Of a DNA stretch of 48,403 nt, positions 812-42,484 are shown in pieces. Position 1 is the first letter of the stretch, and every line of letters starts with the position of its first letter. Made by a program: the position numbers and the translations under genes. Source of the DNA: a virus (Duplodnaviria > Caudoviricetes); IMG/VR virus record IMGVR_UViG_3300021082_000035, positions 1 to 48,403 of that record. One strand, written 5' to 3'. The notes under the pieces are model-generated. The model had not been told where the DNA came from, did not search any database, and was given only the letters and a program-made list of their open reading frames with translations.

Positions 812-826
812 CTCGCCCTCAGTAGT

Positions 827-860: not shown

Positions 861-870
861 GTCGGCTAGT

Positions 871-1845: not shown

Positions 1846-1863
1846 TTAAGTCCCTTTCAGGGG

Positions 1864-2484
1864 TTATGTGTCCCGTCGCATCCCCACGCCCATTGCCTCC
1901 ATCTCAGCCTTGAAAGCAGGTGCCTCTCGTTCGAGTTGCGCCAGCAACTCTGGGATGGTCTGCTCCTGCGGCGAAGTGGTGCCATTGCCGGTTCGTGCGA
2001 CAGAGTTCTTGTCGATCAGTGATGGTGGGACGTTTCCACCCAGACCAGCAGTCAACTTCGCTTCTAACGACGCCAGTTTGCCTTCGTCTGCGACCGCGAG
2101 GACGTTATCGTCCAACTCGGCGGAGACGTTGGGGAAGCGAGTCTTGCGCAGTTCCACCGTGTGGTTGCGCTGAGTCTCTTCCAACTGCCGCGTGAGCGAT
2201 GTGACCTGATCCTGCATACGCTGCTCGGCAGTCATGTTCTGCTGCCGCTGGACTTCCTCTGCCTTGCGTGCCTGTTCCTCGGTCGCTTGGTAGCGAGCGA
2301 GTTGGTCACGGAGGGCTTTGGCTTCCTCTGCGTGTGCCTTGTCCTTGCCGGAAATGCGAGCCTGATACTCGCGCTCGACTTCCTCGACCGTGCGGGGTGT
2401 CGTTGGCTCTACGACCGCTGTGCCCTCGGCGGGTTCAGTGGTGGCGGGCTGTTCCCCGGACGGAGTGGTTGTCTCGACTGTCAT
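1864..2484 (-). CDS. Capsid scaffolding protein
   Basis: Acidic coiled-coil protein of 206 aa immediately upstream of the capsid gene; SD AGGAG. Confidence 0.75.
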   Translation of the reverse strand: MTVETTTPSGEQPATTEPAEGTAVVEPTTPRTVEEVEREYQARISGKDKAHAEEAKALRDQLARYQATEEQARKAEEVQRQQNMTAEQRMQDQVTSLTRQLEETQRNHTVELRKTRFPNVSAELDDNVLAVADEGKLASLEAKLTAGLGGNVPPSLIDKNSVARTGNGTTSPQEQTIPELLAQLEREAPAFKAEMEAMGVGMRRDT

Positions 2485-2511
2485 CCAGCGTCTCCTAGTT
2501 TGCTACTCCTG

Positions 2512-2534
2512 TGACCCCAATGCAATAGGGGTCA
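2512..2534. promoter_or_regulatory. Inverted repeat upstream of scaffold/capsid
   Basis: tgacccc-N9-ggggtca in the 72-nt intergenic gap. Confidence 0.35.
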
Positions 2535-2556
2535 ATGAGCGTGAGGATACACCTCA

Positions 2557-17793: not shown

Positions 17794-18416
17794 TGACCGT
17801 CTGTGAGTTGGGGCGGTTCTTCGACTACTTGGTACTCGCCCTCGGTGACATTGAGCATGGGCGGGGCTTCGCTGCCACGTGAAAGCAGTACGCCGAGTTG
17901 CGTAATCAACTCACGGTCCTTCTTCTTCTCTTCGCGGCGGTCCAAGAGGTTCTGGGCAGCGAGGCCATCTTGGGTGGTGATGCGTAACTCACCGGCCTTT
18001 AGTTTCTCGACCGCAGCGGCCCGGACTAGGACAGCCATGTCGTCGGTGTCGGGCAAGGGCATTGGGGCCACTTCGCGCCGTTTCACCTCAGTCTCAGGGT
18101 TTCCCTCAATCGCCTCACTTGGGGATGTGGGCGGAGAAACCTCTGGGCGTGCCCCCTGAGACTTCCCCGCCCCCCTCTTCTGTGACCAGCGGGCGCTGGC
18201 CAGTTCGGACGCTGCGCTGCTGCGGCGCTCCACCTCTGCGGCGATGCAGATGTTGACGTGCTTGCGTATCGTCTCGCGCTTGACGTTGAACCCACGCTGA
18301 CGGCTAAGAGTCTCTATGCGCGAGTGAGGCGTTTTCTTCGACAACTCGGTGTTGATCCAGATGCGCCTGTTCTCATCCCCGTGACATATCCCGCACCTGT
18401 GTGTCGTAAGCGTCAT
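17790..18416 (-). CDS. Probable terminase small subunit
   Basis: Overlaps the terL start (ATGA); N-terminal CxxC..H metal-binding/HTH region; no SD but TAGACT 7 nt upstream (possibly leaderless). Confidence 0.6.
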   Translation of the reverse strand: MTLTTHRCGICHGDENRRIWINTELSKKTPHSRIETLSRQRGFNVKRETIRKHVNICIAAEVERRSSAASELASARWSQKRGAGKSQGARPEVSPPTSPSEAIEGNPETEVKRREVAPMPLPDTDDMAVLVRAAAVEKLKAGELRITTQDGLAAQNLLDRREEKKKDRELITQLGVLLSRGSEAPPMLNVTEGEYQVVEEPPQLTDGQ

Positions 18417-19752: not shown

Positions 19753-19779
19753 AATACTGAGTATATACCCCTCTGTCAA
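19751..19779 (-). promoter_or_regulatory. Candidate leftward promoter
   Basis: TTGACA-N17-TATTCG on the minus strand; perfect -35, imperfect -10. Confidence 0.45.
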
Positions 19780-19805: not shown

Positions 19806-19819
19806 AGAACACCAGTTCT
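19806..19819. promoter_or_regulatory. LexA/SOS box
   Basis: AGAACACCAGTTCT matches GAAC-N4-GTTC. Confidence 0.65.
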
Positions 19820-20155: not shown

Positions 20156-20169
20156 AGAACGTCCGTTCA
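20156..20169. promoter_or_regulatory. LexA/SOS box
   Basis: AGAACGTCCGTTCA, with the GAAC core 3 nt after CTGACA. Confidence 0.6.
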
Positions 20170-21075: not shown

Positions 21076-21199
21076 TCATTGAAGTCACCGAAAGGAGTCA
21101 CGAAAGCGAACAAGGCCTCGCACGCCGTCGGCGCGTGAAACAGCGCGCGTTCTCCCTGCGGTTTGCGTAGGGACCAAAAGGACAACAGGGTGCCAAGAG

Positions 21200-21227
21200 T
21201 GATATGATACAAGTGTTCTTTAGAACA
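21200..21227 (+). promoter_or_regulatory. Extended -10 promoter candidate with downstream palindrome
   Basis: TG-A-TATGAT followed by TGTTCT-TT-AGAACA, upstream of the AAA gene. Confidence 0.45.
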
Positions 21228-21294
21228 GCCGGAGCAACAGCCGGTCTGACCCCAAGCGAAGTGGCCCCAAGGGGCCAAGAAAGGGATTGCCACC

Positions 21295-22890
21295 GTGGCT
21301 AAACTCGCCACCCCACATCTTAACGATGTGGTTCCCACACTTACAGGGCTTCGCCCTGTTGCTGATCGGCTCACTGAGGTCGCCACGGTTGGCGCACCGC
21401 TTTCAGCCGTTCGCATAACCGTCGCTTCCGAGCAGGGCGCGGTGCAAGCCGTTCTGCTGCTGTCGGTCGGCGACGACAATGGAACCCCCTACTTCACTGA
21501 CTTGTCAGTGGCAGTGGCAAAGGGTTGCCAGCCGGAAGTGACCTCTCGCGTGAACCGCCTTGTGGCCGGTTTCACCGTCCACCGCGCAGGGTTCACTGCC
21601 TCGTCAATCCGGCCCATCAAGGTCGGTATGAACTGGCGCACCAAGCGCGTGTCGGTTACAAGTAACCGACGTGCGTATGACCTGCCAGTTCTGGCCAAGG
21701 TCAATGTCGGAGTCGGTTCGGCTCACATCCTCACGCGGTGGACTGTTCAGTCCACTCCCGTGGCGATGGACACCAACATTTCAGCCGGTTTCGCTCCACT
21801 CTCGAAGAGCAGCGCCCCCAAGCGCAGAACTGCCCGCCCCCGGACAGGCTCTTCGGTGACCCCAACAATCCGGCAGCAAGTGGCCCCTACGGGGCCAGTA
21901 GCAGGGTCAAGTGGCCCGATTGCTGCTCCCCCTGTGACCCCAAAGGGGTCACCCACTGTTCAGACCGCCATTCCCACACCGAAGGCAAAGCCTTCGGTGC
22001 TCCCAGCAACCCATCCCGGCATCTTCGCCGAGTTGGCCTCTAAGCCGTACGCAGTCCACACGGACCCTTCGGTCCAACGCCGACTCGCTGCGGCTTACAA
22101 CGGGTTTGCCAAGGGCAAACTGACCATCGTTGCTCTTCGTGGCCCCTCTGGGGCCGGTAAGACTCTCGCTGCAATGGACCTCGCGGTGACGAAGGGCTTG
22201 CCCTTCGCCAAGTTCGAGACTCAGGGCATGAGGGATTTCGGTGACTGGTACGGGACCGTAGGACTCACAGAGTCCAACGGCGCGTCAGTCACAGGCTTCA
22301 ATCCTTCGGATTTGACGGTGGCTATCGACGCCAACGGCATCTACGGCGGCATCCCTCGCCTCATCTTGATAGATGAGGTCACACGGGCCGACACAGCCGG
22401 TGCGCTCAATGCCCTTCTAGCCTTGCTAGATGGGCACGGAACGGTCTACATCCCTGATGCTCGAAAGAGCATCACTGTTGACCCGATGGTCATGTTTGTC
22501 CTCACCGCGAACATAGGCACGGGGTTCAACGGAACCCTCCCGCTCGACCGAGCAGTGAGCAACAGGGTCAAGTCTTGGGTCATGGTGGATTACCCCTCAC
22601 CTACGGTGGAAGCCCAGATCATCGCCGAACAGGGTGGAGTCCCTGCGGCAACAGCCGCGAAAGTCGCTCAGGTTGCCACGCAACTCAGGGCAATGGCCAA
22701 CCGGGGTGACCTTCCAGTCGGCCCTAGCACACGGCAACTTGTTGCCGTCGGTGAGGCGATCAGCAATGGCCTCACGCCAGTCGAAGCCTACGAAGTAGGT
22801 TTCGTCTACGAAGGTGGCATGTCCACCGAAGGTGACGGTGACTCCGACATCGACAAGGCCATGCTCACCATCAACGCAGCCCTTCGCTAA
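21295..22890 (+). CDS. MoxR/CbbQ/CobS-type AAA+ ATPase with long N-terminal extension
   Basis: Walker A GPSGAGKT, Walker B ILIDE, sensor TAN, LDRAVSNR, STRQL; Pro/Thr-rich linker. Confidence 0.88.
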   Translation: MAKLATPHLNDVVPTLTGLRPVADRLTEVATVGAPLSAVRITVASEQGAVQAVLLLSVGDDNGTPYFTDLSVAVAKGCQPEVTSRVNRLVAGFTVHRAGFTASSIRPIKVGMNWRTKRVSVTSNRRAYDLPVLAKVNVGVGSAHILTRWTVQSTPVAMDTNISAGFAPLSKSSAPKRRTARPRTGSSVTPTIRQQVAPTGPVAGSSGPIAAPPVTPKGSPTVQTAIPTPKAKPSVLPATHPGIFAELASKPYAVHTDPSVQRRLAAAYNGFAKGKLTIVALRGPSGAGKTLAAMDLAVTKGLPFAKFETQGMRDFGDWYGTVGLTESNGASVTGFNPSDLTVAIDANGIYGGIPRLILIDEVTRADTAGALNALLALLDGHGTVYIPDARKSITVDPMVMFVLTANIGTGFNGTLPLDRAVSNRVKSWVMVDYPSPTVEAQIIAEQGGVPAATAAKVAQVATQLRAMANRGDLPVGPSTRQLVAVGEAISNGLTPVEAYEVGFVYEGGMSTEGDGDSDIDKAMLTINAALR

Positions 22891-22917
22891 AGCGAAGAGA
22901 AAGGCAGGTAACACGAA

Positions 22918-25374
22918 GTGTTAAACGCAAAAGGGGTCACGGACCTAGCGGCACCGGCAAAGCCGGATGCCGACCCCGTGCCTTGGCTCACAGATATGTG
23001 GCGCAAGTCCGGTTGTTTCACAACCGACTTTGCCGCTGAACTTGCTGCCCTTGGCAGCAAGCGCGAGATTGTGGCTAGTCAGTCTTGGGACGCCGATCAA
23101 GCCAAGCAGCGCGTGACTGCGGAGGCTGCCTTCGGCAGTTCTGCGAGCGCACTGGCTGCTGTGGTCAACTCGGTGACCTCATCGGTTCAGGCCCTTCACG
23201 CAGATCACGACACTTACAGTGTCGTGTTCTCGAAGATCAGCAGTGCCGGGACCGATCACGATCACAGAACTGTGCAGATCGGCACGAGCGTACTGCTGAA
23301 CCCCAACCTCACCGAAGGTGAAAGGGCTGCCGGTCTGGTCGGCATTGCTCTCCACGAAACAGGCCACATCAACCATTCACAGCCCTACGGCAAAGCCGTT
23401 AGGGACCACTGGAAGGGTTCGCCGCTCTTGCCGAAGGCTTACAGCCTTCACAACGTCGGTGACGACAATCGCATCGAGGCTCTGCAACTCGAAGAGTTCC
23501 CTGCGCTCACCGCTGCCTTGGAGTGCACGGCGTACCTCATGTTCCAACAGGTCGTAGACCAGTTGGAAGAGCAGGGCAAAGTGGCCCCATTCCAGCCCGA
23601 CATGAAGTCTGCCAAAGGCAGGGAGAACGCACTGAAAATGGGTACAAGGTACCCATCGACCGTCGATTGGACTGGTCACGATGAAAGCCTTGCTTTCATC
23701 CGTGGGTGGGCCGAGAGCATGTCAGCAGCACACACTCCGAAGGAGCATGTGTCGCTGATCGAGGAAGCCTTGGAGTGGATTGCCGATCTGCCAGAGGCAG
23801 AAGAAGAGCCGCAGCCCACCGAAGGTGGCGACGAGGGCGAAGAGTCCGATGAGCCGCCCACCGAAGGTGGCGAGAAGGGTGAACCCAAAGAGGGCAATCC
23901 CGGTGACGCCGAAGGCGACGACGAGGACGGCGACGGTGGTGACGCCGAAGGCGACGACGAAGAGTCGGGCGCTGACGGTGACACCGAAGGTGACACCGAG
24001 GGCGAGGGTGAGGGCGAAGGCGAGGACGCTGACTCCGAACCCACGGATGACGGCGAAGCCGGTGAGGGTGAGGGCGAAGAGTCCAACGACACCGACACCG
24101 AAGGTGAGCCGAATGAGTCCGAGTCCGAAGGTGGCAGTGAGACTGACGCCGAAGGCGACGACGACGACAGTGAGGGCAATGACCTTGACATGCCGAAGGG
24201 TGACGCCAAAGGCGACACCGACGGTGATGCCGAGTCTGACAACCCCACTGACGCTGACAGTCCCACCGAAGGTGAGACTGCGCAGAGTGGTGACGTTGGC
24301 TCGGATGAGGTCACCGATGGTGACCTTGAACTGACCAACGAAATCCCCGAAATCCCCGATGAGATAACCGATGCGGCTCACGACAGTGAGAACGACTCAC
24401 TTGCCGATGACCTCACGGAAGCCCACGCTCGCGGCAAGCGTGACGTGAAGCGTATGCGGCGCTATCCCGGTGCCACTGGTGGCACCGTGATTGTGCAGGA
24501 AGTGACCCTAAAGGAACTACCGAAGGTAGAGGACAAGTGGCTCGATGAAATGTCACTCGGTAACTCCGTTACCGAGGACGAGAACAACGTCCAGCAGGCT
24601 GCCCTAAGAGGGCAGCAGTTGGACGATTACGGTGAGTTCTCCTACGACTGGCGCACCGAGGACCGACCCACTGCTCACGCTGCTTTAGCAGCGGTGATTA
24701 TGTCGGCTCGCAAGGGTGCCGGTGCCCCTGAGACACACCAGCGCAGTGGGCGAGTGGACCGTAGCCGACTCTCACGAGTCGCTACGGGTGACTCGCGTGT
24801 GTTCGTGAAGAACACCAACCCTGCTCCGCAGAAAGTTCGGGTTCACATAGTGATCGACGCTAGTGGCTCGATGGGTGGTGGCAATGGCTTCGACCGCCGA
24901 AGCAACGCGGCCCAAGTGGGCCGTGACCTCGCTGGTGCGCTTGACCGGCTGCCTTGGGCTACGGCCCGTGTCTACGGCTTCGCCGAGGACGACATCAACT
25001 TTGTGGCCCGTATCTGGCAGTCCGGTGAGAAGCGTGACCGGATTGACGACTACCTGCGCATGCCAAGTGGTGGTACACCACTCGGCTACTGCGTGGCCTA
25101 TGTCGCGGATGATCTTCTCGATGAGAAGATGCCGAACGAGAAGGGTGTCGTCATCGTCATCAGCGACGGCAACGGGTCATACAGTGGCGGCAATCAACAC
25201 ACCAAGGGTGTCGTTGATTACTACCGCAAGCAAGGGCTGCGAGTCGTGAGCGTTGCAATGGCGTCACTCGGCGAGGCCCAGCGTCAGATGTTCGGCAGTG
25301 ATGCCATTGAGTACGAACCAGACATGCGGAAGTTCGCCCGCAATCTGGCCAAGGTGATCGGCTCGTCCCTTTAG
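22918..25374 (+). CDS. CobT-like protein: HExxH zincin + acidic linker + VWA domain
   Basis: LHETGH..DDNRIE; about 200-aa D/E/G-rich linker; MIDAS motifs IDASGSM, GGTPL and ISDG. Confidence 0.88.
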   Translation: MLNAKGVTDLAAPAKPDADPVPWLTDMWRKSGCFTTDFAAELAALGSKREIVASQSWDADQAKQRVTAEAAFGSSASALAAVVNSVTSSVQALHADHDTYSVVFSKISSAGTDHDHRTVQIGTSVLLNPNLTEGERAAGLVGIALHETGHINHSQPYGKAVRDHWKGSPLLPKAYSLHNVGDDNRIEALQLEEFPALTAALECTAYLMFQQVVDQLEEQGKVAPFQPDMKSAKGRENALKMGTRYPSTVDWTGHDESLAFIRGWAESMSAAHTPKEHVSLIEEALEWIADLPEAEEEPQPTEGGDEGEESDEPPTEGGEKGEPKEGNPGDAEGDDEDGDGGDAEGDDEESGADGDTEGDTEGEGEGEGEDADSEPTDDGEAGEGEGEESNDTDTEGEPNESESEGGSETDAEGDDDDSEGNDLDMPKGDAKGDTDGDAESDNPTDADSPTEGETAQSGDVGSDEVTDGDLELTNEIPEIPDEITDAAHDSENDSLADDLTEAHARGKRDVKRMRRYPGATGGTVIVQEVTLKELPKVEDKWLDEMSLGNSVTEDENNVQQAALRGQQLDDYGEFSYDWRTEDRPTAHAALAAVIMSARKGAGAPETHQRSGRVDRSRLSRVATGDSRVFVKNTNPAPQKVRVHIVIDASGSMGGGNGFDRRSNAAQVGRDLAGALDRLPWATARVYGFAEDDINFVARIWQSGEKRDRIDDYLRMPSGGTPLGYCVAYVADDLLDEKMPNEKGVVIVISDGNGSYSGGNQHTKGVVDYYRKQGLRVVSVAMASLGEAQRQMFGSDAIEYEPDMRKFARNLAKVIGSSL

Positions 25375-25592: not shown

Positions 25593-25627
25593 CCTAAGCC
25601 CGTCTAGACGGGCATCTGGACACGTTG

Positions 25628-25667
25628 ACCCCACTGCTGACCAACCTCGGCAGTGGGGTTTTTCTTT
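25628..25667 (+). terminator. Intrinsic terminator
   Basis: accccactgctga-ccaacc-tcggcagtggggt followed by TTTTCTTT. Confidence 0.85.
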
Positions 25668-25700
25668 GCCCTCACTCGCGCGTGTGTGTATGCGCAGGGG

Positions 25701-25730: not shown

Positions 25731-25737
25731 GACCTAC

Positions 25738-25765
25738 TTGACATTCCGAACTGATGTTCTATTCT
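25738..25765 (+). promoter_or_regulatory. Housekeeping-sigma promoter with SOS box in the spacer
   Basis: TTGACA-ttc-CGAACTGATGTTC-TATTCT (16-nt spacer). Confidence 0.85.
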
Positions 25766-25822
25766 GGTTAGGCAACAGGGCAATCGCCACTGGCACCACA
25801 GTCTCGAAAGGAGACACACGAA

Positions 25823-26023
25823 ATGGCAACAGCAGCACCAGCCAAGAGCGTCAGCGAGGACATGGACACCGAGCGCGAGACAACGAACACGGTTCGCTTT
25901 GTCGGCGCAGATGGTGGCGTTCTCGCCAACGGCGACAAGCCCGCGACGATCTACGTCCCGAAGGCGGCGCTCGACGCCATCGGCAACCCGGAGCGCATTC
26001 GGGTCACCGTCGAGGCGCTGTAA
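25823..26023 (+). CDS. Hypothetical protein (66 aa)
   Basis: SD AAAGGAG; first gene after the promoter. Confidence 0.75.
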   Translation: MATAAPAKSVSEDMDTERETTNTVRFVGADGGVLANGDKPATIYVPKAALDAIGNPERIRVTVEAL

Positions 26024-26034
26024 CCCAGCGTGTC

Positions 26035-26131
26035 AGTGAGAGCGAGCAGCGTGACCTGCTCGCCTCTCACTAGGTGGGGCCACCCGTGGGAATGGTGGCG
26101 GTGGCCCTGCCTAGTGAGGGCATTCCCTCAC
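26035..26131 (+). ncRNA. Candidate structured intergenic RNA element
   Basis: Three tandem hairpins plus two alternative pairings fill the 127-nt gap. Confidence 0.4.
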
Positions 26132-26150
26132 GTAGCACAGGAGAGCGATC

Positions 26151-26339
26151 ATGCCTCAATGCGAATGGGTCGTGGACAACCACGGGCGGCACCGCCAGTG
26201 CCCCAAAAAGGGCACCGAGATTGTGTACGTCGCGTTCCACACGTTTCCCACTGCCCGCATGTGCAAGTACCACGCCAAGGCGAACGTCAAGCGTGAGGCA
26301 GAGCGAGCAGCGGCAGCCAAGCAACTCGGCGCAGCCTGA
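26151..26339 (+). CDS. Small Cys/His putative zinc-binding protein
   Basis: SD AGGAG; C..C..CKYH. Confidence 0.7.
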   Translation: MPQCEWVVDNHGRHRQCPKKGTEIVYVAFHTFPTARMCKYHAKANVKREAERAAAAKQLGAA

Positions 26340-26353
26340 AAGGGACCACTGAA

Positions 26354-26542
26354 ATGCGGGAGTACACAACGCCAGCAGCACTCATCATCGCGGTGCTGGT
26401 AATCGCCTTCTTCGCGGGCATGGTGTCCGTGGTGGGCCTTAGCAGTGCGTGTTTCTACGACGAGTTCGAGGACAACAGTGCTGTCATTCAGTGCCGCGAG
26501 TTCATCGTGGTGCGTGACGCAGAGACAGGAGAGTGGCGCTAA
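26354..26542 (+). CDS. Small membrane protein
   Basis: N-terminal hydrophobic helix; SD AAGGGA. Confidence 0.65.
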   Translation: MREYTTPAALIIAVLVIAFFAGMVSVVGLSSACFYDEFEDNSAVIQCREFIVVRDAETGEWR

Positions 26543-27057
26543 TGGCCGACGACAAGGACGCCGAGTCCAAGCCCTTCTACGACCCCAAGACCAAGCCGAT
26601 GGCCGAGGCAATAGTCAAGGCAATCGCCTCACTTGGCATCGACCTGTGGGAGAGTGAAGCGGAAACCGCGAGCGAGAAGGAAGGCAAGGCGGAGATAACT
26701 GCCGACCCGCACAAGGCCATGCTGATGGGCTATCTCGCGGGCTTCGAGGCTGCGCTGCACGTCGCTATCTGCGGCAGCGGCGGGCCTGACGTGGTGAAGA
26801 TGCTCGCCATGAGCATGGACCAAGACATACACGATGGGGCCACCCCGTTCCACGATCTGGCCGAGGACCTGCTGGCTGCGATCAAGCAGGCAATGCTGAT
26901 TACCGCAGTCAGTAGTGAGGACATTGACTTCGGAGTCAAGGGCTTCGTCATTGACGCCACTGGCAAGACGCCCGAAGAGGTCACCGAAGAGATACGCCTT
27001 CGGGCTACTGGTCTGGTCGCCAAGATGATGCCCAAGAAGGACAAGGACGATGCCTAG
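26542..27057 (+). CDS. Hypothetical protein
   Basis: TAATG coupling; SD AGGAG. Confidence 0.7.
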   Translation: MADDKDAESKPFYDPKTKPMAEAIVKAIASLGIDLWESEAETASEKEGKAEITADPHKAMLMGYLAGFEAALHVAICGSGGPDVVKMLAMSMDQDIHDGATPFHDLAEDLLAAIKQAMLITAVSSEDIDFGVKGFVIDATGKTPEEVTEEIRLRATGLVAKMMPKKDKDDA

Positions 27058-27718
27058 TGCGCACTACGACGACCTGATACGCATTGGGTTCACGCCTGAA
27101 ATGGCGCAGTTCACTGTGGATGCGGACGCCAAGGCGCAGGAGTTGCGTGAGGCAGACCCCTCGCTGCCCTTCATTACGGCTCACGTCATCGCCTCTGACC
27201 TGACCTCTGCCGACAGGTGGCACGAAAGGATTGTGTCGGGCGAGGTCGAGGCCGAGCGAGCAACCCACCTAGTGGGGTCATACGCACGGTTCCAGTTCGC
27301 CCTCGATCACATGCCCGCCGAGTGGGTGTACGAGAACATCGCTGACCTGTGGCGGGGCAGTGACCCCAATGACACCGAGGTTGCGTACCTAAAGGTGTGG
27401 CACGAGGCGAAGAGACATCACCGCAACCGCGTCATCACCGATGGCAAGCGTCTGCCCAAGGACAATCCCCTCACTGTCTATCGCGGTGAAACCACCGTCA
27501 ACACACCGACCGGCATTGCTTGGACTCTCGACTTGGAGATTGCCAAGAAGTTCGCACGGGGTGCGGGCATTCGGGTCGGCAACATCAAGGGTTACGTGCT
27601 CGAAGCACACGTCATGCGCAAGGACGTGCTCGGCTACCTCACCGAGAGAGGCGAGAGCGAAGTGGTGTGTGACCCCAATACCTTGTTCGGCAAGCGGATG
27701 AAAGGACTCTACGAATGA
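27050..27718 (+). CDS. Putative ADP-ribosyltransferase-fold protein
   Basis: LTVYRG..GIAWT.D..IAKKFA..GESEVV, an R-(S)-E ART pattern. Confidence 0.6.
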   Translation: MPSAHYDDLIRIGFTPEMAQFTVDADAKAQELREADPSLPFITAHVIASDLTSADRWHERIVSGEVEAERATHLVGSYARFQFALDHMPAEWVYENIADLWRGSDPNDTEVAYLKVWHEAKRHHRNRVITDGKRLPKDNPLTVYRGETTVNTPTGIAWTLDLEIAKKFARGAGIRVGNIKGYVLEAHVMRKDVLGYLTERGESEVVCDPNTLFGKRMKGLYE

Positions 27719-27933
27719 TCGACCTGCTATTCGGCGGACTCATCATCATCACGGCTGGCTTCATTGCCGCCGAGGTATACGCCCCACCATTCTGGCTGGT
27801 CGCACTCGTGTGGCTTGGGCTTGGACTTCGCATGTTTGCGAGAGGACTGCGTGACCGCGAGGACCGTCAGTTTGGGCGCACCATCGAGCAGTACCGTGAC
27901 TACAAGGCAGACCTGCGTGAGCGCAATGGGTGA
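27715..27933 (+). CDS. Small 2-TM membrane protein
   Basis: Two hydrophobic helices; ATGA overlap. Confidence 0.7.
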   Translation: MIDLLFGGLIIITAGFIAAEVYAPPFWLVALVWLGLGLRMFARGLRDREDRQFGRTIEQYRDYKADLRERNG

Positions 27934-28111
27934 CGTGAAGGGGGTGTCAATCAGTTGCGCCAAGGGCTGGCACCTGAACTGCCTTGGGCGAGTGAGTCCA
28001 TTGGACTACCCGCCTACCTGCGTGTGCTTCTGCCACGGCAAGAGCAACATCGCATCGCACGGCAAGAACGTGCCCAACATCGGAGAGGGACGGCGCAATG
28101 ACCGCACATAA
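27926..28111 (+). CDS. Small Cys-rich protein
   Basis: C..WH..C..CVCFCH; overlaps both neighbours. Confidence 0.55.
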   Translation: MGDVKGVSISCAKGWHLNCLGRVSPLDYPPTCVCFCHGKSNIASHGKNVPNIGEGRRNDRT

Positions 28112-28679
28112 GCATCAGCCCATCGTCGTGGGCGCAGCGCAAGAACTACTGCGGGCGGGCAAGATCGAGACATTCGATGCCGTCTACAAGTGGGTGTGCC
28201 CTGAGTGTGGGCTACCGCAGCGCACGACACGCCTAGCCGACACCATCTACACGCTGCGTCATGCGTACGGGTGGGAAATCAGCACGAACATTCCCGAAGC
28301 AGATCAACTGGCGGTCTACGTTCTCGTGAAGGCGGGTGACATGCCGGGTGATGAGTCAAAGGGGCCACATCCGAGGCAGTTAGTTCGCAATGGGGAGTCC
28401 GTGTCGGTGAGTCGGTTCAGTTCCGACCTTTCAGGCGTGTCGCTAGAGGGTTCAGTTCCCTCGCTCCCCACCAGCATCCACGACTACGACGGCAAGCCCA
28501 TTCCCGTCGAGGCAATCCCCTCACCAAGTCAATGGCGCTGCACCAACTGCGATCACGTGGTGTCAAAGCCCATCGGCCAGCCCGCCTTGGGTGGGTTCCG
28601 CCGAGCCAAGTGTCCCTCGTGTGGCGCAGCCAAGACCGGACCCGACAAGCACGGTCGCATCTTCGCGCCAGTGCGTTAG
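28098..28679 (+). CDS. Winged-HTH/zinc-ribbon protein
   Basis: RLADTIYTLRHAYGWEI (wHTH-like); CPEC, CTNC..CPSC. Confidence 0.6.
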   Translation: MTAHKHQPIVVGAAQELLRAGKIETFDAVYKWVCPECGLPQRTTRLADTIYTLRHAYGWEISTNIPEADQLAVYVLVKAGDMPGDESKGPHPRQLVRNGESVSVSRFSSDLSGVSLEGSVPSLPTSIHDYDGKPIPVEAIPSPSQWRCTNCDHVVSKPIGQPALGGFRRAKCPSCGAAKTGPDKHGRIFAPVR

Positions 28680-28699
28680 TGGGCGCATTGCTGAGGTAC

Positions 28700-28727
28700 T
28701 TGACAACCCGAACACATGTTCTATTCT
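28700..28727 (+). promoter_or_regulatory. Housekeeping-sigma promoter with SOS box in the spacer
   Basis: TTGACA-acc-CGAACACATGTTC-TATTCT (16-nt spacer). Confidence 0.88.
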
Positions 28728-28758
28728 GATGGTCAATGTTTCGCAAAGGAGAAAGAAA

Positions 28759-28911
28759 GTGGACAAGTGCAACCGATGTCAAAGCAATCGACCCATGCTG
28801 TACGAGCAGGGCAAGGTGCGAGTGTGCTCCGTATGCCTGAACGAAGAGCATTGGGACAAGATCGAGGGGCGCAGATCAGCACAGCAGAAGGCCAAGGTGA
28901 AGGACGAATGA
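28759..28911 (+). CDS. 50-aa zinc-finger protein
   Basis: SD AAAGGAG + GTG; CNRC..CSVC. Confidence 0.7.
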   Translation: MDKCNRCQSNRPMLYEQGKVRVCSVCLNEEHWDKIEGRRSAQQKAKVKDE

Positions 28912-29336
28912 CCCCGCAGGACCGCCTAGCGGCTGCAATCTACATAGACAACTACGAGTTCCACGACGCTCCGAGCGCGGAGTCAATCGCGCAGAGCGCC
29001 CTCGCCGCAGACCCCACCATCGCCGCCGATATGGAGCGCGGTGCCGAAGTCAACGCTGAGAAGCGGTTGCAGTTCCACCCGCTGACCGGCGACCCCGACT
29101 TCTCATACGCCTCACTATCCGACCGGCTCGACACGCTGGAACGGCACAACAAGAGCGCGGGTTTGCAGGGCTATCTTGCCGCGCTCAAAGAACACGCCGC
29201 CGATATGGAGTTGGGGCGACGGATACGGGACGCCAACGACCCGCTGCTGCGACAGACCATCTATCACCTGCTAGACGACGCCACCGTTGTCGAGATTGAC
29301 GAGTTCCGCGCCGCGCTGACCGAGGGCGAGAAGTGA
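28908..29336 (+). CDS. Hypothetical protein with internal AADMExG repeat
   Basis: ATGA coupling at 28908; cgccgccgatatggag occurs twice. Confidence 0.65.
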   Translation: MTPQDRLAAAIYIDNYEFHDAPSAESIAQSALAADPTIAADMERGAEVNAEKRLQFHPLTGDPDFSYASLSDRLDTLERHNKSAGLQGYLAALKEHAADMELGRRIRDANDPLLRQTIYHLLDDATVVEIDEFRAALTEGEK

Positions 29337-29725
29337 ACGACAAGCAACGCTCAATCAGAGGCGACGACAACGCAGCCCTAGACAACCTAATCGGTCCCGA
29401 AACCACCGAGCCAGCGACACAGGCAGGGCGGGCGCTGCTGGACGACATCGAACAGTGGCTCATGGGCAACCGCGACGAAGGCTTCAATATCACGCCGCGC
29501 ATCCGCGCCATCGAAGCCGAGGCGGTGAAGCCGTGGCGGGCGGCGCTTGCCGACGCCTACGGCATCATCATCGACCTTCGTAGCCAGCCGAACACGAAAG
29601 ACCCCATCGGCACGACTCGCATCCTTGCCGGTATACGCGCCCTGCTCGCCACGCCACCGGAGTCGGGCGAGAAGCCACAGCCAATCTTCAATCCCTTTGA
29701 GTTGGATGGACCGGACGGTGAATGA
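29333..29725 (+). CDS. Hypothetical protein (EPATQAGRALL family, copy 1)
   Basis: GTGA overlap; shares two blocks with the next gene. Confidence 0.65.
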   Translation: MNDKQRSIRGDDNAALDNLIGPETTEPATQAGRALLDDIEQWLMGNRDEGFNITPRIRAIEAEAVKPWRAALADAYGIIIDLRSQPNTKDPIGTTRILAGIRALLATPPESGEKPQPIFNPFELDGPDGE

Positions 29726-29954
29726 GCCAGCGACACAGGCAGGACGGGCGCTGCTATATATCCACGGCGAGGCGATGCGCGAACCCGTCCTCGCCATCGA
29801 AGCCGAGGCCGTGGCACCGTGGCGGGCGTTCGCAGACCACCGGCGCGGATGCTTATTCCCGATGGGCCTCAACGAACCTTGCAACTGCGGATACCTAGCC
29901 CTGAAGGGCGGCAACCAATCAAAGACCGCACAAGAGGTAGAACCAAGTGATTAG
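29718..29954 (+). CDS. Hypothetical protein (EPATQAGRALL family, copy 2)
   Basis: GTG start at 29718; H..C..CNCG C-terminus. Confidence 0.6.
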   Translation: MNEPATQAGRALLYIHGEAMREPVLAIEAEAVAPWRAFADHRRGCLFPMGLNEPCNCGYLALKGGNQSKTAQEVEPSD

Positions 29955-30294
29955 ATGGGTAGTCATTGCTCCCGATGGGAGCATGACCGTACGCGAGGAC
30001 GAGCCTACGCTGGAAGCACTGCAAGAGGCAGTGCAGGGTGATCTGGAAGCCCTGCCTGCTCCCTTCGGTGGTGTCAGTGTGTTCGTCAACGAAGAGAAGA
30101 AGAACCAGACCAGTGGCGAGCCGCTGCCGATGAACCCCAAAGCGACAGCGTTCATGGCCGGAAATCTATGGCCGGGTACTCGGCTAGTGGGGCCAATGGT
30201 GGTGGCCGGGGCACCGAACCCTGACGATGAGGCCGGGATGCTGACCTCACTCAGCGATGAGCAAGTGGCCTCATTGACTGGCAAGTTGGGCTGA
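29947..30294 (+). CDS. DUF3846-like protein
   Basis: LEALQEAVQGDLE, VNEE..LPMNPKAT, LVGPMVVAG. Confidence 0.7.
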   Translation: MIRWVVIAPDGSMTVREDEPTLEALQEAVQGDLEALPAPFGGVSVFVNEEKKNQTSGEPLPMNPKATAFMAGNLWPGTRLVGPMVVAGAPNPDDEAGMLTSLSDEQVASLTGKLG

Positions 30295-30295
30295 C

Positions 30296-30721
30296 ATGCC
30301 GAACATTCAAGTCGAAGTCAACGGAGTCCCTGTCCCGCAAGGTAGCAAGCGAGCGTTCCGTGCTGGCAACAGGCTGGTGGTGGTGGACCAGCAGGGCAAA
30401 GACCTGCGCACCTACCGTGAGGCCATTGCCTACGAGGTAGCCAAGCACATACGTGAACCACTGCGTGGTGCAGTGACCCTGCAACTGGACTTCCTGTTTG
30501 CCCGACCACGTGGGCACTACGGCAAGAAGGGGCTGCTGCCCTCAGCGCCAGAGTTCAAGACAACCAAGCCCGACCTCGACAAGTTGGTGCGCTCAGTAAT
30601 GGACGCACTCACAGGTGTGGCGTATCTCGATGACGCTCAGGTCAGACACGTGCAAGCACGTAAGGACTACATCACCGCTGGTGTGCCCGGAACCTATGTG
30701 CTGGTGGAGTGGGACGAATGA
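30296..30721 (+). CDS. rusA: RusA-family Holliday junction resolvase
   Basis: PVPQGSKR; KPDLDKLVRSVMDALTGVAYLDDAQV. Confidence 0.92.
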   Translation: MPNIQVEVNGVPVPQGSKRAFRAGNRLVVVDQQGKDLRTYREAIAYEVAKHIREPLRGAVTLQLDFLFARPRGHYGKKGLLPSAPEFKTTKPDLDKLVRSVMDALTGVAYLDDAQVRHVQARKDYITAGVPGTYVLVEWDE

Positions 30722-30981
30722 TTACCTTCCCTTCGGTGCATGGCTTCGACCGCATTCAGTTCGAGGACTACCGCATCCCTGCGTGGATATGGAAACGCCT
30801 CACCGTCTGCACTGACACGGGGTGCTGGGAATACAAGGGTGCCAATGGTGTCAGGCCGTGGAATGTGATGGCAATGCGCTTGCTCCACGTCGAGTGGCTG
30901 GCCATCCAGTCGGTAGTCCAGACCTGTGCCAACAAGGCGTGTGCCAATCCCGCTCACCTGTGCGTGGTCCTAAAGCCTTGA
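30718..30981 (+). CDS. Degenerate HNH/His-Me finger protein
   Basis: TGCWEYKG..QTCANKACANPAHL; Gln at the position of the usual catalytic His. Confidence 0.55.
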   Translation: MITFPSVHGFDRIQFEDYRIPAWIWKRLTVCTDTGCWEYKGANGVRPWNVMAMRLLHVEWLAIQSVVQTCANKACANPAHLCVVLKP

Positions 30982-31005
30982 CAAACTGAACGTACGTTCT
31001 AATAT
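30978..31005 (+). promoter_or_regulatory. Housekeeping-sigma promoter with SOS box in the spacer
   Basis: TTGACA-aac-TGAACGTACGTTC-TAATAT (16-nt spacer). Confidence 0.85.
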
Positions 31006-31500: not shown

Positions 31501-31855
31501 CGTTGAGGTACCTGACTCGGCGCTCATCGGCACAGCAACGGTCCTCATCGAAGAGAAGTTGCGCAAGTTGGTGGCTGACCCGTGGCAGGTGTGGGACGAA
31601 CGAGGCAACCGGCTGCTGGCCTATGGCCCGTGGCAGGTGGTCAGGTACGAACGCCTTGCGATCAAACAGGTGGGCTTGGTGAGGGTAATGCGCACCAACG
31701 TGAGGCGTTACAGCGGGGCGCTGGACAAGTACCCCTTTGGGAAGCCGTGGGACGAAGGAATGGGACCACCACCAAACCGTGACGAACACCCAACCGAGGC
31801 ATACAACGGACGTAGCGTTCAATCACCAGTGCTAATCAGGAGTCAAGCCGAATGA
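31478..31855 (+). CDS. Hypothetical protein
   Basis: ATG 31478; stop coupled to the next gene. Confidence 0.6.
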   Translation: MDLVTYRDVEVPDSALIGTATVLIEEKLRKLVADPWQVWDERGNRLLAYGPWQVVRYERLAIKQVGLVRVMRTNVRRYSGALDKYPFGKPWDEGMGPPPNRDEHPTEAYNGRSVQSPVLIRSQAE

Positions 31856-32070
31856 GCAGACAGAGGAAGGTGACAGAGGATGAGGTCTATGCCTATCTGA
31901 TGTACTTCATCGAGAAGCATGGGTTCTCCCCCACTGTGAGGGAAATCCAAGATGGCCTCGGCATATCGTCGCCGAGCCTCATCCAGAGCAGGCTGCGCGA
32001 ACTGCATGACAACGAGCGCATCACCCATATTCCGGGTAGCCCACGCACGATCAGGTTGGTGAGAAGGTAA
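31852..32070 (+). CDS. Stand-alone LexA-type DNA-binding domain (no peptidase domain)
   Basis: FIEKHGFSPTVREIQDGLGISSPS..L..L....I...PGSPRTIRL matches the LexA N-terminal wHTH. Confidence 0.85.
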   Translation: MSRQRKVTEDEVYAYLMYFIEKHGFSPTVREIQDGLGISSPSLIQSRLRELHDNERITHIPGSPRTIRLVRR

Positions 32071-32867
32071 TGGCAACGAAGGCAGCGGCAGGTCCACGCA
32101 ACGCCAAGACCGACGAGCGGTCAGGCATACGCACATACAAGTGGAAGGGCCGAGACTTGCCGTCAGTGACCTCATTGCGACGGTTGCTTGGTGTGCCCTT
32201 CCCCTTGGCGACATGGATGGTCGAGCAGGTAGTCAAGGCTGCGGTCAACAACTCGGTGGCGCTCGATGCTCAGGTGGCAGAGGAAGGCCCGGACGTAGCG
32301 GGCAAGTGGCTGCGCACTCTGGGCACAAGCGAGCGTGACGCGGCAGCCAATCGAGGCACCGCAGTACACGAGGCAGCAGCATCAGGACGTGCGGTCATGC
32401 ACGTGGAGCCTGAGTTGCAGGGTCCACTGTCTCAGTTCTACGACTTCATTACGGTCACGGGTGCCAAGATCATCCTGCAAGAGCAACAGGTCTGGAACCT
32501 GACGCTTGGGTACGCAGGGTCACTCGACATTGGCATCGAGATTGAGTGGGGTGGGGTGCTGCGCCGCCTAGTGGTCGATATAAAGACAGGCAAGGCTGTC
32601 TACGTTGACCACGTGCTGCAACTCATGGGCTACGGACTCGGCGAGTTCGTGGGCAAGGATGATGTCGAGGATGCAAAGGCCACCAAGTGGCTCCATTCAG
32701 CAGACGGGCTGGCCGTACTGCATCTCTCCGACACGGAGTGGGAGTTGATCGAAGTGAAGGTCAACCCCGAAATCTACGAGGTATTCAAGGCGATGGTGAC
32801 GTTTGCCCATTGGCAGATGGCCACGCCTACCATTGACACACTCATCAAGGGAAGGTGGACGAAGTGA
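32070..32867 (+). CDS. PD-(D/E)XK exonuclease
   Basis: LPSVTS, AANRGTAVH, YAGSLD, VDIKTG, LQLMGY. Confidence 0.85.
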   Translation: MATKAAAGPRNAKTDERSGIRTYKWKGRDLPSVTSLRRLLGVPFPLATWMVEQVVKAAVNNSVALDAQVAEEGPDVAGKWLRTLGTSERDAAANRGTAVHEAAASGRAVMHVEPELQGPLSQFYDFITVTGAKIILQEQQVWNLTLGYAGSLDIGIEIEWGGVLRRLVVDIKTGKAVYVDHVLQLMGYGLGEFVGKDDVEDAKATKWLHSADGLAVLHLSDTEWELIEVKVNPEIYEVFKAMVTFAHWQMATPTIDTLIKGRWTK

Positions 32868-33739
32868 CAACCGAGATAGACGACGAGACGATGGACGAAG
32901 AGCAGCAGCAGGAAGAAATCGACAACCCGCCGCCCCAGCCCAAGCCCTCAAAGGCACCACCCCCCAAGGCCACAGGCACCGTCATTCCGGGCACGAACAT
33001 CGCGCTCAGTGGTGTGGCACCGGCAGTGCTGGCTGACCTCGGACGTAAGACGCCAGTTGAGGAAATCAAGCAGCGCATGGCGATGAAGAAGAGTGGCCAG
33101 CCTGCCTACGGGCCGGATGGTGCGCCGCTCATGCTGTCCTACGTGGACGCTCGCTACGTGCAGGACGTGCTCGATGATGTGGTCGGGCCTGCCAACTGGC
33201 AGAGCGTGTTCCAGAACGTCGAGGGTGCAGGTGGCGAGGGTGTCCGTGCGGGCATTGGCATCAACGTCAACGGCGAGTGGGTCTGGAAGTTCGATGCCGG
33301 TGTGCCAAGCAACATCGAGCCGGTGAAGGGCGCACACAGTGATGCGTTCAAGCGGGCCGCTGTTCAGTGGGGCATTGCTCGTGACCTCTATGACAAGGCC
33401 GACGACGCAGCCGACGCACTGAATGCTGCGGTAGCAGCGGCACCAACGCAGACGGTGCAGCAGCAGGCGGGCACACGCTACGCAGGGCAGGCACCACAGG
33501 CTGCCGCTCCGCAGGGTGTGGTCACACAGGACGACACTCGCACTGCCGAGGAAGTCGAGCAGGATGCGATGGACCTTGGGCTGGTGTGGTCCTGCCCCCT
33601 GCACGGTGGCATCCCGCGCTACACCGCAGCCGGTGTCACCAAGAACCCACCACACCGCCCATACGCCGCACGTATCCGGTGCAGTGAGCGCAACTGCAAG
33701 GAGAACGGGCCGTTCGTGCCGGTTCCGGGTGACGTGTAA
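32864..33739 (+). CDS. Rad52/Sak-family ssDNA annealing protein
   Basis: SYVDARYVQDVLDDVVGPANWQ; KGAHSDAFKRAAVQWGIARDLY; C-terminal Cys/His cluster. Confidence 0.88.
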   Translation: MTTEIDDETMDEEQQQEEIDNPPPQPKPSKAPPPKATGTVIPGTNIALSGVAPAVLADLGRKTPVEEIKQRMAMKKSGQPAYGPDGAPLMLSYVDARYVQDVLDDVVGPANWQSVFQNVEGAGGEGVRAGIGINVNGEWVWKFDAGVPSNIEPVKGAHSDAFKRAAVQWGIARDLYDKADDAADALNAAVAAAPTQTVQQQAGTRYAGQAPQAAAPQGVVTQDDTRTAEEVEQDAMDLGLVWSCPLHGGIPRYTAAGVTKNPPHRPYAARIRCSERNCKENGPFVPVPGDV

Positions 33740-33864
33740 TGGACTGGCTCGAACTCGCACTCATGCTCTTCGTGATTGGTCAGGTGGTCGGCATCGCGCT
33801 GGCCATTCTGGCTATCATCGTCGGCATCATCTACGTGGTGGTGCAAACACTGCGGGGCCACTGA
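33739..33864 (+). CDS. 41-aa membrane peptide (not in ORF track)
   Basis: TAATG coupling; MDWLELALMLFVIGQVVGIALAILAIIVGIIYVVVQTLRGH. Confidence 0.6.
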   Translation: MDWLELALMLFVIGQVVGIALAILAIIVGIIYVVVQTLRGH

Positions 33865-33892
33865 ACTCACCCCGCTAGCAACAGGAATACCG

Positions 33893-34762
33893 ATGGACGC
33901 ACTCACCTACGCTGGGCTATGGCAACTAGCCGACCTCTTCTGCGCCACCTACGACGCATACGTCAAGGACAGCAGGGCGCACATCCCGCAACCCATTACG
34001 CCTGAGTTGCTAGAGCAGGCGTACCGTGAGCGGTGGGCCGTATCCGGGTACACCGCACGTCTGGACGGCGACAAGATGGTGACCCACATCGGGGCCATCG
34101 ACTTCGATCACGCTGACCCTGCTCAGTACGAGGCAGTGCGTGACACGCTGACAGGGCTGGGCATCCCGACCATCGAGGCTATGTCCAATCGTGGTGTCCA
34201 CCTGTGGGTGACAGCGCGTGAGGAAGGGCCAGCCAGCATCATGCACAAGGCGTTGGAGCAGGCCATACGCCTCACCGACAAGGACATCCTCGACACGTGT
34301 GAGGTATTCCCCAAGACCAGCACATCCCCGTGGGGAGTGGGGGCATTGAGGCTGCCGCTGATGACGCACCCCAAGACCCACGAGAGATTTCCAGTCATCG
34401 ACATGGACGGCAATCACCTCACTAAGTTGATCGACGTGTGCCTTGCCGTCCAGTACACGGAGTGGTCGGTGCTGCGATCACTGGCTGCTGATGCGCCGGT
34501 TGAGTACCCGCGTGACCTCGGCGTTTACCGCCAGCGCAAGGACTACGGCGACACGGGCAGCGCAGTGCAGTTGCTCGATGCTCTGGGGGTGCAGGCCGTA
34601 CCCGGCAGGTCGTGCAGGTGCCCCTTCCACGAGGACAGGAAGGCGTCACTGAGCGTGGCGCAGGACGATCAGCGGGTGTGGTGCAAGTCGCCTGAGTGTG
34701 AGGCGTACAACGGGGGGAGAGGCGTGGGAACACTGGCTCTGGCCAAGATGGTGCAGCGGTGA
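33893..34762 (+). CDS. AEP-family primase with C-terminal CHC2-like zinc finger
   Basis: AIDFD, SNRGVHLW, EVFPK, LRLPL; CPFHEDRKASL..WCKSPEC. Confidence 0.8.
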   Translation: MDALTYAGLWQLADLFCATYDAYVKDSRAHIPQPITPELLEQAYRERWAVSGYTARLDGDKMVTHIGAIDFDHADPAQYEAVRDTLTGLGIPTIEAMSNRGVHLWVTAREEGPASIMHKALEQAIRLTDKDILDTCEVFPKTSTSPWGVGALRLPLMTHPKTHERFPVIDMDGNHLTKLIDVCLAVQYTEWSVLRSLAADAPVEYPRDLGVYRQRKDYGDTGSAVQLLDALGVQAVPGRSCRCPFHEDRKASLSVAQDDQRVWCKSPECEAYNGGRGVGTLALAKMVQR

Positions 34763-36132
34763 CGCTGGATATGAACCTTGCCCGCACGGGCATGGGCTAC
34801 ATCTTCACGGTGGCTGACGATCAGACCGAACTGATGCGCTTCGAGGTTGGCCACATGGCAACCACCACGTGGGGCATACGGGGCAGGGTGACGGTGCGTA
34901 GCAGGATGAACGGCGCTCGCACGGTGCCGGGTATGTCGGGCTACATCACGACCGACGTGCTCGACTTCCTGTCGTCACGCTCACGCCAAGCCTTCGCCGA
35001 GCGATTGGGGTCACTGATACCAGCGCCACCCGGTGGTGCGGCCATTGACTGGGACATCGTGGTCGAGAAGTTGGTGGCCACGATCATGGACATGGAGAAC
35101 CGGCCACCCATAGTGGTGCCTATCGAGACAGTCACAGCCGTACCAGTCCAGCCCCACGTCATTCCCTATCTCCTGCCTGAGAACAAGGTCACCATCCTGT
35201 ACGGGGCAGGCGGCACAGGTAAGAGCAAGATCGCAGCGTCCATTGCCGCTGCTGTGCAGACCGGCAAGAAGTGGTTGGGCAACGTGACGAAGCAGTGCAA
35301 CGTGATGTACTGCGATTGGGAGACTGACGAGGGTGATGTCGCTCATCGCATAGCGGCAGCCAGCCGTGGCATTGGCCTCACTGACAGGGCACCAGTGAAG
35401 TACATGAACTTCGACATGCCACTCGACAACGAGATTGACTACATCGCTGCCGCCGTGGTGGAGAACGACATTGGCTTCCTCATCATCGACTCGGTGATGA
35501 TGAGCATGGCACCTACGGGTGCGGGCGCTGACCCTGCGTGGGCGGCGATCAGGTTCTTCCGTGCCCTGCGCATGCTCAACTGCACGGTGCTGTGTATCGA
35601 CCACATCAGTGGCGAGGACCAGAAGAAGGGGCGGGCAGGAGCGAGCAAGCCGTATGGCTCCGTCGCCAAGTACAACACGGTGCGTAACGCCTTCGAGTTG
35701 ATCGACACGACCGAGGCAATGGACGGCTCACAACTCACACTCAAACACCGCAAGGCGAACGTCGGCCCGAAGATACCGGGCGGCGAGGTAACCCTGACGA
35801 GTGAGTGGAATGACGTGACCGACACGCTCACCTTCCGGCGCATCGTCCTCTCTGAGCCTGACGTGTCACTCGGTGAGCGGGTAGTGGGGGCATTGGAGAC
35901 TGGGCCTGCGTCCTACAAGACGCTGCTCGAAGTGCTGAACAGCGATCAGCGTTTCGACTATGTAGATGAAGCCCAACTGCGTGGTGCCAGCAGAGCATTG
36001 CTAAGTGGCTCCATTGCAACCATCGACAGTAACGGTGTCTTACGCCTCACTAAGACTGAGGACGTAGAAGAGAGCAAAGACCCTGAGTCACTACCACTTG
36101 CACTTGAAGAGGAAGAGTCGATAGACTCTTAG
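34759..36132 (+). CDS. RecA-fold (AAA_25/RepA-like) replicative helicase
   Basis: GAGGTGKS, YCDWE, LIIDS, CIDH, PYGS; coupled to the primase gene. Confidence 0.85.
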   Translation: MTLDMNLARTGMGYIFTVADDQTELMRFEVGHMATTTWGIRGRVTVRSRMNGARTVPGMSGYITTDVLDFLSSRSRQAFAERLGSLIPAPPGGAAIDWDIVVEKLVATIMDMENRPPIVVPIETVTAVPVQPHVIPYLLPENKVTILYGAGGTGKSKIAASIAAAVQTGKKWLGNVTKQCNVMYCDWETDEGDVAHRIAAASRGIGLTDRAPVKYMNFDMPLDNEIDYIAAAVVENDIGFLIIDSVMMSMAPTGAGADPAWAAIRFFRALRMLNCTVLCIDHISGEDQKKGRAGASKPYGSVAKYNTVRNAFELIDTTEAMDGSQLTLKHRKANVGPKIPGGEVTLTSEWNDVTDTLTFRRIVLSEPDVSLGERVVGALETGPASYKTLLEVLNSDQRFDYVDEAQLRGASRALLSGSIATIDSNGVLRLTKTEDVEESKDPESLPLALEEEESIDS

Positions 36133-36213: not shown

Positions 36214-36249
36214 AAACAAAAAGAGGGCGGGGGTGCATCCGCCCTCTTT
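36214..36249 (-). terminator. Terminator of the leftward unit (possibly bidirectional)
   Basis: aaagagggcgg-N8-ccgccctcttt; U-rich tail on the minus strand. Confidence 0.8.
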
Positions 36250-42483: not shown

Positions 42484-42484
42484 C

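Follow-up and report, generated by a model that had tools for sequence, protein, structure and literature searches.

The closest described counterpart of the locus considered here is the regulatory circuit of GIL01, a tectivirus of Bacillus thuringiensis. In GIL01, host LexA together with the phage protein gp7 represses the phage promoters P1 and P3, gp6, a truncated LexA homologue, binds a palindrome of its own and activates the late P3, and lysogeny is proposed to be sustained by weak expression from the promoter that LexA represses (PMC6182141). Other phages also use LexA, mostly through antirepressors (PMC9437464, PMC13492144), and LexA boxes have already served for classifying prophages (PMC12527982). 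Lytic deferment by host regulators is described for CtrA sites in alphaproteobacterial phages and for Spo0A in phi29 (PMC9437464). The motif GAAC-N4-GTTC is the chromosomal LexA box of B. subtilis and M. tuberculosis (PMC3323433, PMC3381160). Here we analyse a phage genome of 48,403 nt (the window hereafter, which is the whole of virus record IMGVR_UViG_3300021082_000035) in which three early promoters, which we also number P1 to P3, carry a box of this type between their -35 and -10 elements.

The three promoters lie on the plus strand and are built alike. P1 (25738..25765) consists of a -35 TTGACA at 25738-43, the box at 25748-59 and a -10 TATTCT at 25760-65; P2 (28700..28727) has TTGACA at 28700-05, the box at 28710-21 and TATTCT at 28722-27; and P3 (30978..31005) has TTGACA at 30978-83, the box at 30988-99 and TAATAT at 31000-05. 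In each of them the box abuts the -10 and the spacer is 16 nt long, and open reading frames (ORFs) led by a Shine-Dalgarno sequence begin downstream at 25823, 28759 and 31035. A preliminary description of the window had reported these positions, spacers and downstream ORFs, and differing N positions within the boxes, and all of this was verified. It had also held that the promoters are not simple duplicates of one another, and duplication of a single promoter is indeed ruled out because spacer bases and flanks vary among the copies; the box is kept. P1 to P3 are the three best sigma-70 matches within 18-37 kb, and they are the only sites in the whole window that combine a TAnnnT -10 with at least 9 of 12 consensus matches. 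On base composition, a box is expected at one fixed position with a probability of about 1e-5. By exhaustive scan the window contains exactly five GAAC-N4-GTTC sites, namely the boxes of P1, P2 and P3 and two others at 19807 and 20157, and none of 100 dinucleotide shuffles reaches five (mean 0.74, maximum 4), which bears out the earlier statement that their number exceeds chance. As for the earlier statement that they are intergenic, none of the five lies inside a gene with a family match, the 19807 box overlapping short unannotated ORFs only. The direct-repeat box of Alphaproteobacteria was considered as well and is ruled out, with a single GAAC-N7-GAAC and a single GTTC-N7-GTTC, both inside genes. 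In a strain variant covering P2, the substitutions listed (6 of 8) fall directly upstream of the -35 and none within the promoter.

The same arrangement is found in chromosomes of Chloroflexota. The exact pattern TTGACA-N4-box-TA gives 14 matches in 13 of 301 genomes, with none for the reversed control, and 13 of the 14 have a TAnnnT -10. Six precede genes of DNA-damage type (RecA/ImuA-like in two cases, Rv2578c-like radical SAM in two, UDG-linked radical SAM in one and Pol IV/ImuB in one); of the others, one lies ahead of an SLT gene and seven ahead of genes without a family match; the promoter associated with Pol IV/ImuB has a -10 identical to that of P1 and P2. Rv2578c is itself a LexA chromatin immunoprecipitation peak in M. 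tuberculosis (PMC3381160). Among 151 control genomes, all Acidobacteriota, one has the exact pattern. When N3-N5 was allowed before the box, a high-GC class of Chloroflexota, selected because the pattern was present there, had 67 matches spread over 61 of 201 genomes, as against none for the control, and 65 of the 67 are in the N4, or 16-nt, register of the phage; excluding four unpublished genomes of the class leaves 62 matches in 57 of 197, of which 60 are N4. This class is that of genome G282 and is presumably Limnocylindria. At 28 class loci examined, RecA/ImuA-like genes follow three of the matches and Hrq1-like helicase genes another three. Of the lexA genes in the class, five were tested, and every one has the box in its promoter. 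Scored with a matrix of 51 host sites, which had been chosen beforehand for having the core and, in most cases, the TA flank and therefore bias it, host sites range from 15.8 to 24.6 and the phage boxes reach 20.5 (P2), 19.1 (P3), 18.7 (20157), 18.3 (P1) and 15.1 (19807). The scan with a Chloroflexi LexA matrix that the preliminary description had proposed thus places four of the five boxes within the host range and the 19807 box slightly below it, and the next-best site in the window scores 11.1. A literature search found no primary paper on the Chloroflexi LexA motif or on LexA base-contact residues; GAAC-N4-GTTC is reportedly also the LexA box in Dehalococcoides. Judged from their sequences, P1 to P3 copy the chromosomal SOS promoter layout of a Chloroflexota class.

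Capsid genes point to the same hosts. This phage family's capsid gene is present in 3 of 301 class genomes (E ~1e-60), and a fourth genome has a fragment of it at a contig end. In G046 and G575 a tRNA gene flanks the small element to which it belongs, which also encodes an integrase and either a primase or a helicase, and tblastn detected no terminase or portal homolog in these two elements. The capsid-bearing chromosomal elements (G046:C1 ~171-180 kb, L286; G575:C3 ~337-344 kb, L291/L464; G563:C22, L294) look like capsid-forming satellites. In a tree of 53 capsids, obtained by a quick search and with long branches in the relevant part, the three class capsids group with the phage family (SH-aLRT 97), and those of Streptomyces phage Abafar and Bacillus phage Pony fall apart from both. 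A phylum-wide capsid search of 231 genomes, which had low power, returned G046 again as a strong match and one marginal match. We infer that the host is a high-GC Chloroflexota bacterium, a call supported by the satellite-like elements with the family's capsid in class chromosomes; the host, for which a prediction had been proposed earlier, is in this way narrowed to one class from promoter layout and capsid genes. For close terminase homologs, the 301 class genomes yielded two weak matches, both on phage-like contigs binned into genomes, and no integrated prophage of the phage family was found in these genomes. Two phage contigs binned in class genomes, G689:C9 (46 kb) and G282:C132, resemble the window remotely in terminase, portal or large proteins, and boxed promoters are absent from them.

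Behind P3 the genes follow in the order given by the preliminary description. A gene that we call mini-LexA (31852..32070, plus strand) is followed by a replication and recombination block (32070..36132, plus strand) of an exonuclease (32070-32867), an Erf/Rad52 annealase (32855-33739), an AEP primase (~33893-34762, a weak match) and an AAA_25 helicase-type ATPase (34759-36132). Mini-LexA has 72 aa and comprises only LexA's DNA-binding domain (PF01726, E 3.6e-11); it matches positions 9-69 of TIGR00498 and has no S24 domain. LexA proteins of about 70 residues reduced to this domain are common in viruses. Its identity is 27-31% to the N-termini of three host-class LexA proteins and 28% to GIL01 gp6, and its recognition helix has the sequence SSPSLIQSRL where the host proteins have ASxSAVHHHL, a difference at five positions. 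By analogy, a gp6-like role as late activator is possible but not supported, because a candidate late-promoter element described below is common to the window and the relatives G003 and G006, both of which are without mini-LexA; the same observation weakens mini-LexA as an obligatory late activator of the family.

Compared with GIL01, the window has in common that no dedicated phage repressor was found, that Gram-positive-type LexA boxes stand at early replication promoters, that there is no integration, and that a protein with only the LexA DNA-binding domain is encoded beside the replication genes (66 aa in GIL01). Unlike GIL01, a 15-kb tailless linear tectivirus, the window is a tailed phage of 48 kb that encodes terminase, portal and primase-helicase, its boxes are contained entirely in the spacer between -35 and -10 at three promoters, its likely host is a member of Chloroflexota, and its circuit is predicted from sequence; no gp7 homologue appears among its family matches, in which no search aimed at gp7 was included. 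It shows neither the tailless virion, terminal-protein-primed polymerase and ~15-kb linear genome of Tectiviridae nor the S24-bearing CI and integrase of lambdoid phages. With the chromosomal LexA regulon the window shares the core motif, and it shares the position and 16-nt register with the recA/imuA-, Pol IV-, Rv2578c- and Hrq1-like promoters of Chloroflexota; its flanks follow the Chloroflexota pattern and not the mycobacterial TCGAAC-N4-GTTCGA consensus, and its targets, unlike those of the chromosomal regulon, are phage replication genes. As in temperate phages that place an antirepressor under LexA or use LexA in co-repression (coliphage 186 Tum, N15, SPC32H, CTXphi and phi11), host LexA would couple phage development to DNA damage. 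Phi11 is described as keeping its own repressor, whereas none was found in the window, where LexA would itself act, and directly, at the promoters of the replication genes. Coliphage 186, N15, SPC32H and CTXphi are also said to keep a repressor of their own; in these temperate phages LexA controls an accessory gene. The window resembles the CtrA and Spo0A cases in having sites for a host transcription factor in promoters of a phage without a classic lysogeny module, and differs from them in regulator and signal and in that its sites gate the core replication block. Our literature search, which covered papers outside subscription-only access, surfaced GIL01 and antirepressor systems; neither a tailed phage under repression by host LexA alone nor a study of SOS control in a Chloroflexota phage came up. 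On these comparisons the window most likely represents a variant of the GIL01 strategy in a tailed phage.

We therefore consider it probable that the early promoters P1 to P3 are repressed by host LexA, and that the replication genes are turned on only after RecA-triggered cleavage of LexA. Because all three consensus promoters copy the Chloroflexota LexA layout, these genes are likely to stay silent until the host suffers DNA damage. Host LexA bound between -35 and -10 would block RNA polymerase at each promoter, and damage would open the three together through RecA-driven cleavage. A hairpin with a T run resembling an intrinsic terminator (25627..25670, plus strand) precedes P1 and is predicted to insulate P1 to P3 from the unit upstream; with read-through shielded in this way, the whole 25.8-36.1 kb unit would form one SOS regulon. 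No terminator-like site is predicted on the plus strand between P1 and a second terminator-like hairpin (36229..36246, plus strand), which closes the early block where the two strands converge. The repressed genome would stay extrachromosomal, in the form of a carrier maintained by leaky replication, which is what has been proposed for GIL01, or of a lytic infection that is deferred. Upon derepression the recombination-replication proteins and mini-LexA would accumulate, and mini-LexA, unable to cleave itself, may act as a second-tier regulator at a further putative site; the late genes would then be expressed from a promoter of non-canonical type, upstream of which lies a weaker box.

That replication is gated by host DNA damage in a phage with no recognisable CI or integrase had been proposed in the preliminary description, and this claim survives in part. 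The host SOS layout, the boxed promoters of host lexA genes and the gene content agree with it: six-frame searches, from which remote regulators could escape, detected none of PF00589 (tyrosine integrase), PF00239 (resolvase), PF00717 (S24), PF01381 (HTH_3) and PF13614 (ParA) in the window and four relatives (0 of 5 each). The claim had left unweighed three phage-encoded candidate DNA binders, and it has to be qualified by relatives without boxes and one with another operator. The candidate binders are mini-LexA, a winged-helix HTH_39/zinc-ribbon protein (28098-28679, a weak match) and the 66-aa first gene after P1. For this last protein an AbrB-like regulator was considered on account of a resemblance and was set aside: its Atlas matches are unnamed viral clusters only, and its AlphaFold model is poor (pTM 0.29).

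Several observations weigh against repression by host LexA or against its generality, some of them from related phages. A single-protein capsid scan of viral contigs returned no relative, and an alignment-based scan found relatives. The closest relatives have 76-91% capsid identity and lie on contigs of 16-49 kb; those with 40-57% capsid identity are syntenic with the window. No box enrichment is seen in 32 related viral records, which have at most two boxes each, a control-like level, and PF01726 is present only in the window itself among 16 records. The near-identical pair G013 and G011 are the only relatives with a box beside an early promoter, where it stands 3 nt upstream of the -35. In G001, the closest relative read as DNA, the operator-like motif GTTGGCA occurs inside three early promoter spacers (G001:C1 42229, 33875 and 33248, minus strand), one of them directly before the exonuclease and once as a full palindrome, TGCCAACGTTGGCA; further palindromes occur in other relatives. 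This palindrome was not found in 121 genomes of the host class and is ruled out as a host motif, and its absence there suggests that the phage family uses phage-coded operators also. With relatives lacking box enrichment and PF01726, and G001 having another operator, the SOS wiring is, across the records compared, specific to one lineage and not a trait of the family. On the host side, the class was chosen for the pattern that was then counted in it, the matrix carries the bias stated above, and the control genomes from outside the phylum are all Acidobacteriota. At 22 of the 28 class loci the downstream gene, mostly a conserved short ORF, has no Pfam match, and because 25 of the 28 have a second box, the class matches are largely orthologous loci and not independent. 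A search of the 301 class genomes for CRISPR-spacer or prophage DNA matches gave only short hits of partial identity, none of them spacer-like. No plasmid maintenance genes that could serve as a vehicle of the silent state are recognised in the window.

One alternative keeps host LexA as the binder and makes the phage strictly lytic: the phage would trigger SOS itself, by way of the genes expressed first or of its DNA on entry, and loss of LexA would serve as a timer between immediate-early and delayed-early expression, without any enduring silent state. We regard this as possible, if doubtful; it shares its binder with the preferred explanation and differs from it in lifestyle, and the confidences placed in the two overlap. 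It agrees with the lack of integrase, resolvase and ParA in the window and four relatives, with the absence of a close terminase homolog among 301 class genomes, and with a box-free unit of AAA and vWA genes that precedes the gated block. Deferment by host regulators has also been proposed for other phages (PMC9437464). Against it, the box-free unit has no gene recognisable as a known SOS inducer or as anti-LexA, and missing maintenance genes are compatible with a carrier state, since weak expression from a LexA-repressed promoter is what is proposed to maintain lysogeny in GIL01.

The main rival, though unlikely, is that the boxes are mainly operators of mini-LexA or of another phage binder, acting through negative feedback in early shut-off during an ordinary lytic cycle or in superinfection immunity, and that the host SOS response is incidental. 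Mini-LexA is encoded under P3, an autoregulatory position, boxes and mini-LexA occur together in the window while most relatives have neither, G001 has another operator in the same spacer, and a cluster of seven GAAC half-sites at ~19660-19770 might suit a protein without a dimerisation domain. Yet mini-LexA departs from host-class LexA in overall identity and at five positions of the recognition helix, and the palindrome bound by GIL01 gp6, the one analogue that has been studied, is a different one. Nor is a phage repressor seen across the family, as 67 small early ORFs from four relatives yielded no regulator family. Moreover, the boxed promoters follow those of host SOS genes in register, flanks and -10 sequence, so that host LexA is expected to bind the boxes anyway. 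That the boxes are passive baggage of strong promoters taken from host SOS genes, or chance, with no selected role, is very improbable: relatives do without them and single SOS-type promoters are common in viral contigs (~910 stretches, extrapolated from 9 of 64 parts scanned), but the box is present in three of three promoters and at five sites overall, it is kept while spacer bases and flanks differ, and the exact pattern, found at 26 viral loci, never occurs twice on one contig.

Repression by host LexA remains the explanation that we prefer. A fuller picture, which we put forward tentatively, is that of a short-tail-type phage of uncultured Chloroflexota that has lost its own repressor, has placed its entire replication block within the host SOS response, waits outside the chromosome for DNA damage, has converged with GIL01 on a circuit of LexA plus mini-LexA, and belongs to a family that swaps operators in one and the same early-promoter spacer and shares its capsid with chromosomal satellites. 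If this holds, direct repression of phage replication by host LexA would have arisen in tailed phages too and would not be an oddity of tectiviruses, and phages without integrase and CI that marker-gene tools label lytic could reside in slow-growing bacteria of soil and sediment and be inducible by DNA damage. As a signal for host prediction, the register of the promoters is usable in a phage family without a close cultured member, and the circuit lends itself to tests in the absence of the host, since its promoters are of sigma-70 consensus type and a host-class LexA can be expressed.

Promoters of SOS type on viral contigs mostly follow another register, with a 17-nt spacer in 82 of 119 hits read, these of low GC, and a 16-nt spacer in one. 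Some such viral-contig promoters (L008, L019, L023) stand ahead of similar unannotated proteins of ~85 aa. In the class of G282, a conserved unannotated ORF of ~70-80 aa follows a tandem-box SOS promoter in many genomes (L426-L452), and a Chloroflexi genome has two LexA-box promoters at G033:C117 1338 and 2672 (L267), the second directly before a terminase-like gene.

CheckV gives the record a completeness of 100%. Both window ends fall inside the virion block, and 43 of 47 bases are common to the two ends. The same capsid cluster is found on other assemblies of 48,643 and 48,844 bases, so a few hundred bases are missing at most. The two best-matching sequencing runs are freshwater sediment DNA, and one of them may be where the record came from; among the runs listed as containing the sequence, none is of RNA. 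The virion block (173..18416, minus strand) encodes a presumed small terminase, the large terminase, portal, scaffold, an N4-gp56-type capsid and an SU10-type adaptor (slightly below the Pfam cut-off), as well as two very large proteins, presumed ejection proteins, and it runs over the window ends into a minus-strand tail and lysis block (36268-48324). From the terminase, portal, capsid type, adaptor and two very large proteins we infer a short-tailed virion.

The early genes occupy the plus strand from 20422 to 36132. The box-free unit (21179..25374, plus strand), with a candidate promoter at 21179-21208 and a CbbQ/MoxR AAA and vWA pair, is presumed to be expressed first. Directly downstream of this candidate promoter, at 21215-21226, lies one of the three sites in the window with the inverted arrangement GTTC-N4-GAAC, possibly by chance. 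Besides its small unknown genes and the HTH_39/zinc-ribbon protein, the P1 unit (25823..28679, plus strand) contains a phrog_4776 protein (27050-27718), and the P2 unit (28759..30981, plus strand) contains small unknown genes, a DUF3846 protein (29947-30294) and a RusA resolvase (30296-30721). Directly upstream of the P1 -35 there is a further hairpin (25700-25731) whose arms contain GTTC and GAAC. In one relative (G013:C1 27882-29744, L238) an apparently different primase-polymerase gene, between the late and early regions, replaces the primase-helicase pair.

A candidate late-promoter element, TTGACA-N8-TATACT (19760..19779, minus strand), stands upstream of the terminase and virion operon, and in the form TTGACA-N8-TA(T/G)A(C/A)T it is common to the window, G003 and G006; its non-canonical spacing suggests an activator-dependent late promoter. 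The fourth box (19807..19818) is 27 nt upstream of the late-operon TTGACA. The fifth (20157..20168) follows CTGACA-N3 on the plus strand, as in host lexA promoters, and abuts TAATGT on the minus strand. The contigs of run X2 break at 19820-19991, beside short palindromes, and this is possibly a physical genome end or packaging site. The seven GAAC half-sites of the late leader (19660-19770) fall within 100 nt and form the densest such stretch of the window; short direct repeats occur there as well, and G006 has similar repeats near its late element.

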